This document shows, piece after piece, positions 25,257 through 30,798 of a DNA stretch of 64,000 nucleotides; position 1 is the first letter of the stretch, and every line of letters starts with the position of its first letter. The notes beneath the pieces are model-generated. The model was not told the origin of the DNA and did no database searches. It was given only the letters and a program-made list of their open reading frames with translations. The translations under genes and the position numbers were made by a program. Source of the DNA: Armatimonadota bacterium (GTDB lineage Bacteria > Armatimonadota > Fimbriimonadia > Fimbriimonadales > GBS-DC); assembly GCA_037444405.1 (NCBI GenBank), contig JBBIML010000007.1:32001-96000 (forward strand), given 5' to 3'.

Positions 25257-25440
25257 TGAAAGCGTCGGTGGACAATCGGGCGTTGTGTTCGTCGAGAAGT
25301 GCGTCCAGTGGGCAAGCCCTCGGCCGGTTAGTACGGCTCGGCTCAACGCATTGCTGCGCTTACACGTGCCGCCTATCGACCCGGTCATCTACCGGGGGCC
25401 TTACTCCGTTGACCGGATGGGAGACCTTATCTTGGGGTGG

Positions 25441-25471
<31 letters not shown>

Positions 25472-25604
25472 CCGTCCCGACATGGCTACCCAGCGACTGC
25501 CCCTGGCGGGACAACTGGTACACCAGAGGTCGGTCCAGCCCGGTCCTCTCGTACTAGGGCCAGCTCCCCTCAAGTCTCCTCCGCCTGCGGTGGATAGGGA
25601 CCGA

Positions 25605-26355
25605 CAATCTGTTACTTTCAGCGTCTTTTGGACGCCTACTGACCTTGCCTCTGGCAAGGCGGGTAAGCCTTTCGGCTTACCTCTGCATGTCGCCATGCAG
25701 TTCGGACTGTCTCTTCACCCTGTGGGCTTCAGGGTGTCCGGCGTACAGTCTCTGAGGGTTCCAGATGAGAGTAGATGGTTTTGATATCGATCTTCCGATA
25801 AGCTCCGTTGTCGTTCATGCTCACAGCGATCTGCAGGATTGCTTTGAAGCCTGCAGGCGTGAGATGCTCTCTGTTATGGAGCTTTCGGACAATCGTGGCG
25901 AACTTCTCAAAATCGTGGCGTTTGGTGGTGCGGAGCGGATAGCGCTCAAAGAAGGGGATGACCTTCTCCAAGAGGTCTTTGCGTGATCGCACCACAAACA
26001 CCCAGGTTTTGTCGTTCGGTTTGCGACGGTCGTTCGGCTTCAGGTAGCCGCAACCCAGCGTGTCTCGGATGAGTTCCAGCACGCTCTTGTTTCGTTCGTG
26101 CTGGGAGACATGGAGTTCTGGAATGACCTGCCAGCCCAGTTTCGTACTGGGATTACGCTGGATGGCTACATGAAAGCTGCCTTCGCCGTCCACAAACCCA
26201 GCGATATAGTAGCCCAGACTCTCATCTGGCCTTCCCTGCTGATTGCCTGCACCTGACGCATTGTTACTCATGTGCTGAAGTATAGCACATGAGTAGCGCA
26301 GGATACTAACCAGGCTTCCCAGCATATAGCCGGATTTATAGACAGCACGGTGAGT
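25605..26355 (-). mobile_element. Group I intron at ~L2604 (751 nt)
   Basis: Exons GAGACAGT^TCGGTCCC; IGS GCTGTCT gives U.G at the 5' splice site; P/Q/R/S elements TGCTGGGAA, AATCAGCAGG, TCAGAGACTG, GAGACAGTCC; terminal G. Confidence 0.93.
25729..26271 (-). CDS. Single-motif LAGLIDADG homing endonuclease (L2604 intron)
   Basis: [28 protein letters not shown]. Start uncertain. Confidence 0.9.
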
Positions 26356-26402
<47 letters not shown>

Positions 26403-26412
26403 TGAACCCCCC

Positions 26413-26471
<59 letters not shown>

Positions 26472-26685
26472 CCGCCGTCGCTGTGGACGCTCGGGCAGGA
26501 TCAGCCTGTTATCCCTAGGGTAGCTTTTATCCGATGAACCCTGGCGTGCCCACGCACTGCCAGAGGGTCACTAGGCCCGGCTTTCGCCTCTGCTCGACCC
26601 GTAGGTCTCACAGTCAAGCCCGCTTATGCCCTTGCACTCGACGCGCGATTTCCGACCGCGCTGAGCGGACCTTTGGACACCTCCG

Positions 26686-27321
26686 TTACCGTTTAGGCAA
26701 TTGCGTTCGTGCAGTCGCTGGCAATTTGTAACGCATTTCGGGTATCAGGTACGGTTCAACCAGTTCCAGGAACCCTGGGAGGTTCCGTCCTGGAATGACA
26801 ATCTGATACCCTTCGGCTTGCCGTCGCAGGTACGCTTCCAGTCCAAACCGTTCGGAAAGCAGCTGTGCCAGTCGCTCGACCTCCTCGCGCTGGAACCCCT
26901 GGGTGTTGAACAGCACGGCTTTCGCTTTGGGGTCTTTGAGGGAGCCGTCGTCCATGAACCAGTATGCCAGGCTACGGGGTTTCAGCCAGCGATGAAGCAG
27001 AGGTGGCACGCGCTTGCGCCCCTCGCGATAGAACTGGTGGGCGTAGAATCGGAAGGCGCCGTGGCTGACGGTCTGGAACCACCAGTTGCCGTTCGATTTC
27101 TGCTGGGGTGGTGTGAGAACCCATTCCTGGAAGAGCTGATAGAGGTGCTGCACATAGGCAGCGTGCGTGGCGCCCTGTTCGATTTTGAGGCGATAGGTGC
27201 GTCCGCGATTGTGCGTTTCCAGGTGGGCATCGCCCAGCAGGATTCCCACCAGCACCTCACGCTGGATGGGCGTGAGCTTGAGTTGCTGTTTATCGGTTTC
27301 GATGGCGCGTGTGTGTGCCAT
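26686..27321 (-). CDS. Double-motif LAGLIDADG (I-SceI-like, LAGLIDADG_2) homing endonuclease (L2262 intron)
   Basis: LVGILLGDAHL and LAYWFMDDGS; AAGGAGG RBS; stop codon lies in the 3' exon. Confidence 0.9.
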   Translation of the reverse strand: MAHTRAIETDKQQLKLTPIQREVLVGILLGDAHLETHNRGRTYRLKIEQGATHAAYVQHLYQLFQEWVLTPPQQKSNGNWWFQTVSHGAFRFYAHQFYREGRKRVPPLLHRWLKPRSLAYWFMDDGSLKDPKAKAVLFNTQGFQREEVERLAQLLSERFGLEAYLRRQAEGYQIVIPGRNLPGFLELVEPYLIPEMRYKLPATARTQLPKR

Positions 27322-27625
27322 AGCGACCTCCTTCGTCTGCGACGGACTGCACGCCTCCTGTGGGGAGGCTTCCGGTCGCCCGGAAGTTCAGACTGTCTCA
27401 CCATCCACGCAAGGTGGATGCTCGGCGTACAGTCGTTGAGGGGTCACGAGGACTTCCCTGCTGATTGTCCGCACCAGTCGCATTTTCAGTGGCGCAGGCG
27501 CCACTAGCGCTGGATGCTGCACCCCTTCCTCAAAGCACGGAGGTGCGGCTTTGAGTGAGGGGACGGACTTCCCAGCATATAGCCGAGTTTGCCTCCGATG
27601 TTGCCATCGGAGCGCCCCACTGTTG
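26698..27625 (-). mobile_element. Group I intron at ~L2262 (928 nt)
   Basis: Exons GGGGCGGTCGCCT^CCTAAACGGTAACGG; TGCTGGGAA, AATCAGCAGG, TCAACGACTG, GAGACAGTCT; terminal G. Confidence 0.93.
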
Positions 27626-27928
27626 AGGCGACCGCCCCAGTCAAACTACCCACCTAAGACTGTCTCCGAACCGGCTCACGGTTCGGGTTAGCACTTCAGC
27701 AGACCAAGGGTGGTGTTCCATTGACGCCGAAGCTCCCACCTACGCTCTACATGATCTGCCAAAATGCAATCTCAGGCTGTAGTAAAGCTCCATAGGGTCT
27801 TTCCGTCCCACCGCAGGTAACCCGCATCTTCACGGGTAGTACAGTTTCACCGAGAGTCCCGCTGAGACAGTGGCCCAGTCGTTACGCTTTTCGTGCGGGT
27901 CGGAATTTACCCGACAAGGAATTTCGCT

Positions 27929-28685
27929 TATCGCCTTACTCGAGTTTACTCGAGCGAGCCATTACCCCCCTTGTCACAGGGAACGGCTCCTGCATGTCGC
28001 CATGCAGATGGGACCATATCATCACCTCGTCATTGAGGTGTCCGGCGTATGGTCTCTGAGGATTCTAATCACTGCGGAGCGGTCTTTGCGCCGATTCATG
28101 GAAGCGGCTATCTGGGCTATTGTTTCGAGACCTTCTGGTGTCAGATGGTCTCCGCGTGCGACATGCTCCAGACAGCGCGCGAACTTCTCAAAGTCGTCTC
28201 GTTTTGCGGTTTGGAGGGGGTATGTTTGGAAGAACGGGACGATGACTTCGAGAAGGTCCTTGCGACGGCGCACCACATAGCGATACAGGTGTTCCTTGTG
28301 GTTGTCATGGCGTCGGTTTCGGATAATATTTCCGACGCCAAAGAAGTGGCGTAGGCGCTCCAAGGCGTGCAGGCTACGCTCGCCTTGGGTGACAGAGAAC
28401 TCATGAAACACCTGTATGCCGACTTTGTAGCCTTTGCGGAGTCCTCTATGCGGCTGCTGAATGAAGCCGATAGAGAAACAACCTTCGCCGTCTACAAAGC
28501 CGACGACCCATCCGACAGTGATTAGTCTTTCCTGCTGGTTGTCCGCACCAGACGGATTGTTACTCATAGGAAACGGTTTCGTTGAAGACAGGGAGTTTCC
28601 TACGAGTACCGCTGGATACCCCGGAGTTTCCAGCATATAGCCGGATGCGCACCACATGGTTACCCATGTGGGGGGCAGCGAAGCT
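27929..28685 (-). mobile_element. Group I intron at ~L1931 (757 nt), apparently ending in A
   Basis: Exons GGTCCTATGGT^AGCGAAATTCC; P1 GGUAGC-UUC-GCUGCC; TGCTGGAAA, AACCAGCAGG, TCAGAGACCA, GATATGGTCC. Confidence 0.92.
28022..28567 (-). CDS. Single-motif LAGLIDADG homing endonuclease (L1931 intron)
   Basis: WVVGFVDGEGCFS; IVPFFQTYPL..AKRDDF. Start uncertain. Confidence 0.9.
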   Translation of the reverse strand: MSNNPSGADNQQERLITVGWVVGFVDGEGCFSIGFIQQPHRGLRKGYKVGIQVFHEFSVTQGERSLHALERLRHFFGVGNIIRNRRHDNHKEHLYRYVVRRRKDLLEVIVPFFQTYPLQTAKRDDFEKFARCLEHVARGDHLTPEGLETIAQIAASMNRRKDRSAVIRILRDHTPDTSMTR

Positions 28686-29510
28686 ACCATAGGACCGTTA
28701 GAGTTACGGCCGGCATTCACCCGGGCTTCAGTTTGGGGCTTTGCCTTGCGGCTGACCCCTCCCCTTAACCTACGGGCATTGGCCAAGCGTCGCCCCCTAT
28801 ACATCGGGTTTTCCCCTTAGCAGAGAGCTGTGTTTTTGGTAAACAGTCGCCAGGCCCTCTTTGCTGCGACCTCCCTCCGCTTGGGCGTTGCAGCCTACAC
28901 GGTGGGAGGCACCCCTTCTCCCGAGGTTACGGGGTCAATTTGCCGAGTTCCTTAGCGGGACTTCTCTCGCGCGCCTGAGGCTCCTCGCCTCGCCTACCTG
29001 TGTCGGTTTGCGGTACGGTCAGGTGGGTTCATCGCGGAACGGCTTTTCTCGGCTGCAGTCGGGGTCGCTTCGGTTGCCCGAGGGCTTCCTTCGTCGCCGG
29101 TGCGTTGCCTCACCGGCGAGCGCGGCCTTCCAGCTCCGCGCCCGACCCGTTCTACAGCGTCCCCGTTCGCGCTCCGCCACCTGGGGTGGGAATGTTGACC
29201 CACTGCCCTTCACCTACGGCGTTTCGCCCTCGGCTTAGGACCGCCTAACCTTCAGCGGACGAACCTGCCTGAAGAACCCTTAGGCTTTCGGCGGACGGGA
29301 TTCTCACCCGTCTTCTCGCTACTCGTGCCGGCATTCTCACTTCTGCACGCTCCAGTGGTGCTTCCGCTCCACCTTCACGGCGTGCAGAACGCTCCCCTAC
29401 CGCTCACCAGCGCAGGGCTGGTGAACCCGCCGCTTCGGCGACCAGCTTAAGCCCCCTTACATTGTCGGCGCAGGGTCACATTCGGCCAGTCAGCTGTTAC
29501 GCACTGTTTA

Positions 29511-29547
<37 letters not shown>

Positions 29548-30475
29548 ACGCGACCCTACATCCTTTCACACTGAGCTGGTGCTTAGGGGCCTTAGCGGGC
29601 GGTCTGGGCTGTTTCCCTTTTGACAACGGCGCTCATCCGTCGCTGTCTCACTCCCACGCTTCCTGCTATGCCATTCGGAGTTTGGTTGGGTTCGGTAACC
29701 TGGTAGGGCCCCTAGCCCATCCAGTGGCTCTACCTGCATAGCATAGCGCGTGGGGCTGCACCTCAATGCATTTCGGGGAGAACCAGCTATCTCCGCGCTC
29801 GATTGGCATTTCACCACACTACCCCCAGTTCCTCCGAGCCCTTTTCAACGGACACCGGTTCGGCCCTCCACCGTGTGTTACCACGGCTTCAGCCTGACCA
29901 GGGGTAGATCGCGCGGTTTCGGGTCTACGCCTTGTGACTGAGTCGCCCTGTGAGGACTCGCTTTCGCTACGGCTCCGTGCCGGAGGCACTTAACCTTGCC
30001 GCTGAGCGTAACTCGCCGGCTCATTCTGCAAAAGGCACGCCGTCAGGCTGTTCCCCTTGCGGGGCATAGCCCTCCGACTGCTTGTAGGCGCACGGTTTCA
30101 GGTTCTCTTTCACTCCCCTCGCCGGGGTGCTTTTCACCTTTCCCTCACGGTACTGGTTGCGCTATCGGTGGCAAGGAGTATTTAGCCTTACCCGGTGGTC
30201 CGGGCCGATTCGCGCAGGGTTCCTCGTGTCCCGCGCTACTCGGGAGCCTGACGGGAGACGATTCCTTTTCGCATACGGGGCTCTCACCCTCTATGGCGTG
30301 CCGTTCCAGGCAGCTTCTGCTAAGGAACCGTTTTGTCACTCCCTGAGCGGTCTGCCGCCCGCTCGGTCAGGTCCCACGACCCTGGCATCGCAACGCCGGC
30401 AGGCTTGGCACGATGCCAGTTTAGGCTGTTCCCCGTTCGCTCGCCACTACTGAGGGAATCCCATTCGGTTTCTTT

Positions 30476-30510
<35 letters not shown>

Positions 30511-30798
30511 ACCCTCCGCACCGCCTATGGGTTCAGCGGAGGGTGACCACCCTTGCGGTGGCCGGGTTTCCCCATTCGGGCATCCACGGATCAACGCCTG
30601 TTTGCGGCTCCCCGTGGCTTATCGCAGCTGACCACGCCCTTCATCGGCTCCTTGCCCCGAGGCATCCACCGTGCGCCCTTAGTAGCTTGCCCACTCAGAC
30701 GCACTTCTCGGTGAACACTTCGCCCGATTGTCAAGGTGCACATTTGGTTGAGAGGGGTCCGTTGCCCCTGGGTAAACCCTCGCAGGTAGGCTACAGGT

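Follow-up and report, generated by a model that had tools for sequence, protein, structure and literature searches.

A group I intron with a terminal adenosine at L1931 of a bacterial 23S rRNA gene, and the recurrence of non-G terminal bases at this site

Group I introns are commonly defined, among other things, by a terminal guanosine (omega-G) that hardly ever varies, and the tools used for finding intron boundaries rely on it. An intron whose last base is an adenosine raises the question of whether that base is real, how far the same state extends among related introns, and whether such an element can still be removed from its host RNA. This question arose in the window analysed here, the whole stretch of 64,000 nucleotides from an Armatimonadota bacterium. 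The window carries on its minus strand an rRNA operon (16S, tRNA-Ile, tRNA-Ala, 23S and 5S) that is present as a single copy in an assembly of 40 contigs and 2.68 Mb, and three group I introns, each with a LAGLIDADG open reading frame (ORF), split its 23S rRNA gene. The original prediction, made from the letters alone, held that the intron at L1931 appears to end in omega-A.

The L1931 intron and its boundaries

The intron in question occupies positions 28685-27929 of the minus strand (757 nt), its boundaries being anchored on the exons. On the RNA strand the 5′ exon ends with ...CGGUCCUAUGGU, U1931 lying at 28686, and is followed by intron AGCUUCGCUGCC..., of which A28685 is the first base. 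At the other end the intron closes with ...GUAAGGCGAUA (...GGCGAUA; read as ...GAGUAAGGCGAUA), the omega position being A27929, and the 3′ exon resumes with AGCGAAAUU (AGCGAAAUUCC) from A1932 at 27928, which places the insertion between U1931 and A1932. Since the intron and the 3′ exon both start with AGC, the window alone lets the boundaries slide by up to 3 nt with the mature rRNA unchanged, and a slide of +2 would yield a terminal G. The true 5′ splice site would then follow G1933, and the intron would end ...GAUAAG with a normal omega-G; 11 of the 29 omega-A introns in the census described below likewise begin with AG. We regard such a register error as very improbable, as the cleavage site would then carry a G-C pair instead of the U.G wobble and P1 would be left with a single intron pair, and P9.0 abuts the A position in 34 of the 34 L1931 introns that end in a base other than G. 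Moreover, the two sister introns, L005 and L086, start with ACC and end with ...GUCAUA and ...GCGAUA, respectively, in front of exon AGCG, which precludes a +2 slide to a terminal G and resolves the register. The same holds more widely, in that the other 18 of the 29 omega-A census introns do not start with AG and hence cannot be shifted to G, nor can 41 of 70 introns recovered by a scan for omega-A junctions (among the matches listed). The U.G wobble of P1, P9.0 and the intact G-C pair of P7 fix the register.

A sequencing or assembly error at 27929 is more remote still. It could be entertained for an assembly of 40 contigs with one rRNA operon, and the listed read pieces of this organism do not cover the base; against it, four sequencing runs list no other letter at this position, and separate assemblies agree, the same base being found in L005 and L086 and the same kind of ending in L257 (Armatimonadota) and L249. 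In addition, the window intron and the omega-G relative L093 each have a tail of 6 nt after the GUAAG/GCAAG motif, and this equal length makes the A look like a substitution, not a lost base. The terminal A of the window intron is very probably genuine, and exon anchoring together with the two sisters bears out the predicted omega-A end.

The remaining parts of the intron can be followed along the minus strand. P1 consists of exon GGU (28686..28688) and intron AGC, a UUC loop and then GCUGCC (28679-28674), in which U28686, that is U1931, stands opposite G28676 as the U.G wobble, at the place where the original prediction had put it. In the internal guide (28674..28682), GCC (28676-28674) is the partner of exon GGU; UUCGCU (28682-28677) can pair as the P10 strand with the first six bases of the 3′ exon, AGCGAA (27923..27928, A1932 onward), giving 6 bp, and its GCU is the partner of intron AGC within P1. 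A putative P2 hairpin, CCACAUGG-GUAA-CCAUGUGG, spans 28652..28671. The 3′ strand of P3, GCCGGA (28041..28046), pairs by eye with UCCGGC (28645-28640), and at the matching places L086 has CCCAGC and GCUGGG, also paired by eye, which appears consistent with a compensatory change. P7 is built from GAGACCAUA (28048..28056) and UAUGGUCC (28011..28018), the latter supported by covariation as well as sequence; G28056, the bulged A28055 and G28054-A-C-C-A-U-A face U28018-A-U-G-G-U-C28012-C28011, such that G28054 and C28012 form a canonical guanosine-binding pair beside the bulge, intact as predicted. The P8 hairpin, CACCUC-AAUGAC-GAGGUG (28023..28040), has compensatory changes at six of its six pairs among the non-G introns, and P9, CUGCAUG-GCGA-CAUGCAG (27990..28007), is likewise supported by covariation. 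Between P7 and P9 lie C28010 (J7/9) and the 5′ strand of P9.0, A28009 and U28008 (28008..28010 in all), whose 3′ strand, A27931 and U27930 (27930..27931), directly precedes omega. P9.0 had been proposed as AUC pairing with GAU; the AU/AU part stands and is kept in the closest relatives, whereas the third pair, possible in the window between C28007 and G27932, fails in L005, which has C at the place of G27932.

The homing endonuclease ORF (28022..28567) encodes 181 aa plus stop and is of the single-motif LAGLIDADG type (LAGLIDADG_1, PF00961, 70.8 bits, 2e-19). Its start (28565-28567) lies inside the 3′ strand of a 13-bp helix extending P5 (ACUCGUAGGAAAC / GUUUCCUAUGAGU) and its stop codon (28022-28024) lies inside P8, so that coding sequence and ribozyme core overlap at both ends. 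The window intron scores 29.0 bits (E 1.1e-4) with the Rfam model Intron_gpI (RF00028), below the gathering score of 50, which we attribute to the ORF of about 550 nt interrupting the model; its ORF-less sister L086 reaches 61.5 bits with RF00028, above the curated threshold of 50. The window intron is, in short, a group I intron with the P1 wobble, the P7 G-C pair beside a bulged A and a covarying P7/P8/P9 core, P3 through P6 having been read by eye, and departs from the group in its last base, A27929 in place of the terminal guanosine; in having a terminal A with an otherwise canonical G-binding site, it resembles the natural omega-A introns of the Coxiella L1917 type.

The other two introns of the gene provide in-gene omega-G comparisons. 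The second (27625-26698, minus strand, 928 nt) contains a LAGLIDADG_2 ORF and ends ...CAAUUG, and the third, at L2593 (26355-25605, minus strand, 751 nt), contains a LAGLIDADG_1 ORF and ends ...AGAUUG. The second is inserted after ...GGUCGCCU, roughly E. coli position 2260 by approximate mapping; at its site 8 distinct introns occur in other loci, all 8 with terminal G. The ORF of the L2593 intron has a layout similar to that of the L1931 intron. In the 23S rRNA gene of L005 (Bacterium HR15) only the L1931 intron is found, the gene being unbroken through the other two intron sites of the window, and intron content thus varies within the lineage. Both omega-G introns of the window have G-AA after P7, in contrast to C28010 of the L1931 intron, a difference that had been correctly noted in the original prediction. 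As a correlate of omega-A this C was tried and rejected: C-AU is equally found in the omega-G introns L009, L071, L073 and L093, and G occupies the place after P7 in many omega-A introns. On the sequences compared, C after P7 is a lineage trait.

The terminal base across L1931 introns

Relatives were collected along three routes. The endonuclease protein led to 345 relatives confirmed by tblastn, the best 80 of which were kept (78 distinct loci); a DNA similarity comparison matched 16 of 401 genomes from the same phylum; and the conserved P7 core motif occurred in at least 127 stretches. The best endonuclease relatives are located in L1931 introns. Anchoring on the conserved exons gave 90 distinct L1931 introns, one of them unreadable at the terminal base (N), and in the 89 fully read introns, all from other genomes and from samples dominated by soil metagenome-assembled genomes (MAGs) of a single survey and de-duplicated by exact identity only, the terminal base is G in 55, A in 29, C in 3 and U in 2. 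The endonuclease-protein sample is biased, having been picked by likeness to the protein of an omega-A intron; the P7-motif sample alone, which is independent of omega, gives 16 G, 10 A, 2 C and 1 U among the matches listed. Hosts include Solirubrobacterales, Acidimicrobiia, Armatimonadota, Chloroflexota, Patescibacteria, Acidobacteriota, Planctomycetota, Dormibacteraeota and Pseudomonadota, with no cultured host of an omega-A intron among the matches listed. The junction scan, which used the omega-A junction pattern, returned at least 120 stretches, at least 3 of them chance matches in coding DNA; the matches in Bacillus, Anaerolinea and Lachnospiraceae were discarded as chance hits in non-rRNA DNA, and one (L349) of the 70 distinct introns with both junctions in the locus is an artefact.

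A control was drawn from seven other 23S sites in the same loci, where 65 of 65 distinct introns have a terminal G, with U at -1. These comprise 10 introns at L1917, 1 at L1923, 19 at L1951, 8 at the second site of the window, 20 at L2593, 5 near 2582 and two singletons. Control boundaries were blast-anchored, those in L091, L092, L059 and L047, whose exons differ from those of the window, were re-registered by eye, and for 7 L1951 introns that allow two registers with U at -1 the standard one was taken.

The history of the terminal base was traced on a ribozyme tree of 80 cores from which the ORF and the last 8 nt had been removed; it omits 10 of the 90 introns, nine without one or both core-cutting motifs and one with N. 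The closest clade consists of the window intron, L086, L005 and L085. L086 is from the same family and is an ORF-less intron of 319 nt with 89% core identity to the window, L005 has an endonuclease 76% identical to that of the window, and L085, also from the same family, ends in C and has a shortened ORF. L093, from the same order, likewise has C-AU behind P7, and its last base is omega-G (...ACAAUG). The omega state changes at least 16 times on this tree, and branches supported at 95 or above require at least 7-8 changes between G and A; close A/G pairs are L047/L062, L061/L071, L089/L088 and the window intron with L093. It had been suggested that the window holds an independent omega-A ribozyme at a site other than that of the known exception in Coxiella. 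The difference in site, L1931 as opposed to L1917, holds, whereas the idea of a lone second exception gives way to a broader picture: collecting the homologous introns, as had been proposed, recovered A at omega in the sisters and recurrently elsewhere, in 29 of the 89 introns overall. As judged from these alignments and the tree, a terminal base other than G recurs among L1931 introns and is specific to this site.

Further terminal states were observed within this set. The five introns ending in C or U are L085, L177, L156, L006 and L115; shortened ORFs occur in L085 (131 aa) and L177 (108 aa), and P1 of L085 contains a U-U mismatch. These C- and U-ending introns may be decaying copies. The omega-G introns L071, L073 and L009/L010, which form a ‘C-AU’ clade in Solirubrobacterales, have an A before the final G, so that their P9.0 fails to form in the usual register, and their tails resemble omega-A tails in which a shift has restored the terminal G. 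In L067, a Solirubrobacterales MAG, an exon piece, AACGGTCCTAAGGT followed by AGCGAAATTCCTTGTCGGGTAAG, occurs with intron-like flanks in three copies about 365 nt apart (about 200-1000), upstream of the real L1931 intron, and one more copy lies on the reverse strand near 2646; these repeats may reflect a tandem duplication or an assembly artefact.

Constraint on the 3′ domain and a proposed route of splicing

The 3′ domains of all 34 non-G L1931 introns were aligned, and the cells of P7, P8 and P9 are paired in 95.4% of cases, compared with 80.0% after shuffling (0 of 500 shuffles reach 95.4%), while cells changed on both sides number 114 against 28.4 in shuffled sets, 12 of the 21 pairs being so changed. 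On either side of the bulged A, the two G-C pairs, one of them the guanosine-binding pair, are invariant in all 34. The penultimate intron base, which is part of P9.0, forms a pair with the second base past P7 in every one of the 34 introns (shuffled mean 22.2; none of 2000 shuffles reaches 34), and both P9.0 pairs form in 18 (shuffled mean 8.7; 0 of 2000), the partners covarying as AU..AU, GA..UC, GG..CC, AA..UU and UU..AA. Among the long introns, an ORF of at least 140 aa is retained in 18 of 19 with omega-A, 45 of 45 with omega-G, 1 of 3 with omega-C and 2 of 2 with omega-U, and the omega-A figure argues that these introns are not decaying relics. The other side of the family is formed by ORF-less mini-introns of 250-384 nt, which account for 10 of the 29 omega-A introns, L086 among them. 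Omega is a purine in 84 of the 89 L1931 introns, a bias that fits a bound base rather than free drift. Covariation, P9.0, ORF retention, the Rfam score of L086 and the purine bias together point to a functional 3′ splice site with omega-A, not to a dead element.

These observations bear directly on the main rival explanation, in which the intron is not fully spliced, either staying in mature 23S rRNA or undergoing the first step only, so that the terminal base drifts at a site that tolerates the insert. Several features speak for retention of this kind: the non-G state is confined to L1931 (34 of 89, against 0 of 65 at the seven other sites), C and U endings do occur (5 of 89), the state changes on the tree number at least 16, and the L1931 intron of Simkania is reported to be unspliced. 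The five C and U endings, with short ORFs in 2 of the 3 introns ending in C, look like drift and were counted against a functional reading. On the other hand, drift at an unused splice site is hard to square with core helices and a P9.0 that covary within the non-G set around an invariant guanosine-binding pair, with a purine in nearly every omega position and with ORF-less derivatives that keep the full fold; P9.0 and P10 serve the second step only, yet both are retained. We regard retention as unlikely, though it is the alternative that deserves most weight.

In model introns, exon ligation suffers strongly when omega-G is replaced by A, which counts against splicing with omega-A. Even so, a functional L1931 intron in the window is the most likely reading, and we favour the view that it is probably a mobile group I intron with a single-motif LAGLIDADG endonuclease that ends in omega-A and still splices by the normal two-step route by means of P9.0 and a long P10. 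In the first step, free guanosine would bind the G-C site of P7 and attack just past the U.G wobble in P1, which is short (GGU/GCC). In the second, the 3′ splice site would be held mainly by P9.0 (AU/AU, adjoining the terminal A) and an unusually long G+C-rich P10, and the terminal A would occupy the guanosine pocket, less well than G does.

The proposed part of P10 can be compared across introns. Contiguous pairing of the 3′ exon (AGCGA...) with the bases 5′ of the guide G reaches at least 3 pairs in 34 of 34 non-G introns, and 5 pairs in 22 of them, as against at least 3 pairs in 25 of 55 omega-G L1931 introns, the guides in both sets having been picked heuristically. In the window, P10 can extend to 6 bp (AGCGAA/UUCGCU) against only 3 bp in the exon part of P1, and the ligated junction GGU-AGCG finds its complement in the guide CGCUGCC, with five G-C pairs. 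The mean contiguous P10 is 1.1 at L1917, 1.4 at the second site of the window and 0 at L2593. At L1951, P10 is equally long (mean 4.4 bp) but A+U-rich, and all introns there are omega-G. A comparison of omega with P10 over phylogenetically independent pairs gave, of 7 pairs, 3.8 in the same direction and 0 in the opposite one (median p 0.125, underpowered). The pattern suggests that guanosine-specific docking can be dispensed with where a strong P10 acts together with P9.0; this P10 idea is weak on account of the non-significant independent-pairs test, the counter-example of L1951 and the heuristic picking of guides. We put forward only tentatively the more general scenario, in which omega-G was lost repeatedly (at least 7 changes forced by well-supported branches) at L1931 only among the rRNA sites sampled, function being kept through the continuous, G+C-rich P1-P10 guide (CGCUGCC against GGU-AGCG) and P9.0, with no need for guanosine-specific docking.

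Help from a protein, that is, splicing with a terminal A that depends on the intron's own LAGLIDADG protein as a maturase or on a host factor, would offer another way around the missing guanosine. The intact ORF of 18 of the 19 long omega-A introns would fit such a role, and LAGLIDADG maturases are an established class, also mentioned in PMC11270868. Against this, the 10 ORF-less introns among the 29 with omega-A, including L086, have no cis-encoded helper at that site. Other intron ORFs are present in the genome of L086. Overall, dependence on a protein is improbable as an explanation of the trait.

Relation to known introns, and the search for a spliced junction

The one natural exception to omega-G that we found in the literature searched is that of Coxiella burnetii, where a 23S rRNA group I intron lacking the canonical omegaG reportedly self-splices (Raghavan et al. 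2007, J Bacteriol 189:6572). We take this exception to be the L1917 intron, with a terminal A. The two cases are alike in being bacterial 23S group I introns with a non-G terminal base in a gene that holds more than one intron. They differ in that the window intron lies at L1931, has a LAGLIDADG ORF and is a member of a widespread family, and in that the L1931 trait recurs in dozens of species from several phyla, whereas Coxiella is one organism. A second precedent is the L1931 intron of Simkania negevensis, which Everett et al. reportedly found unspliced in 1999. It shares the site and a bacterial host with the window intron and sets a precedent that L1931 may tolerate an unremoved intron; by comparison, the window intron keeps every element for both splicing steps except omega-G.

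L1931 introns with LAGLIDADG ORFs have been known from Thermotoga, hot-spring Synechococcus, Simkania, plastids, archaea and CPR bacteria, according to the accessible parts of three papers (PMC1995217, PMC6125680, PMC11270868), none of which touches on the terminal base there. The introns of the 2007 study resemble that of the window, as far as its accessible text goes, in site, in ORF type, in an ORF that runs into the ribozyme core and in a hot-spring-like host setting, as well as in the presence of several introns in one 23S gene, with L1931 and L2593 occupied together in two Synechococcus strains (PMC1995217). That text does not contain the words ‘omega’, ‘terminal’ or ‘splice site’. The archaeal and CPR L1931 introns, labelled IB4, share the site, a broad environmental spread and discovery by covariance models, to judge from the parts of the two papers at hand (Nawrocki et al. 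2018, PMC6125680; J Bacteriol 2024, PMC11270868); ‘omega’ occurs 0 times in the former and ‘omegaG’ in the latter only within the title of a reference. The subgroup label of L1931 introns varies in the available portions of these sources, being IB4 in PMC6125680 and IC1-like in PMC1995217. In the accessible part of a 2025 intron database paper, the last intron position is ‘most frequently’ G (PMC11835236). Our search of the full-text literature, with subscription papers and supplements outside its reach, returned no report of a non-G terminal base at L1931, and the site-specific pattern is one for which we found no earlier report there.

Were a third of L1931 introns to function with A, and a few with C or U, then in a definable RNA context the guanosine pocket would not be needed for recognising the 3′ splice site, and if the reading of the P1-P10 guide is true, these introns would form a natural class of omega-independent or purine-tolerant exon ligation. 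The many close A/G sister pairs, dozens if this reading holds, would then be natural material for dissecting that context. Annotation pipelines that demand a terminal G would misplace the ends of non-G L1931 introns. Should these introns instead not be removed, many soil and hot-spring bacteria would run their ribosomes with an insert of 0.25-0.8 kb beside helix 69, which would be equally notable.

A base of the 5′ exon distinguishes the lineage of the window. At 28689 (minus strand), exon position 1928, the window reads CCUAUGGU, where nearly all other loci read CCUAAGGU; U1928 is common to the clade of the window (L005, L084, L085 and L086) and to L249. This U could help to recognise spliced RNA of the lineage and may also influence the target site of the endonuclease. 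An intronless junction, with either A or U at position 1928, was found in none of 5 related genomes checked. The same-genus genome G350 showed neither the L1931 intron nor the intronless junction, its rRNA probably being unassembled.

Four DNA runs, all from one study, hold more than half of the words of the stretch, and RNA runs hold 0.12-0.15 of them, about the share of the two conserved exon ends. Over 25300-30700, one DNA run (X2) and three RNA runs (X6, X19 and X20), the four in which position 27929 was inspected above, were compared, and none of them contained a joint from this organism across any of the three introns. X6 has a loose end at 27928 with a ligated-looking or intronless junction that reads CCUAAGGU, not the CCUAUGGU of the lineage; having A1928 instead of U1928, it comes from another organism. 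X20 contributed one contig (depth 3.7) on 27948-28099, with 4 differences, from a relative. In X2, a contig (depth 21.9) follows the 3′ exon as far as 27928 and agrees with the window again from 28038 (P8), about 109 nt in between being replaced, and a second, related L1931 intron with another 3′ tail seems to be present in the same community.
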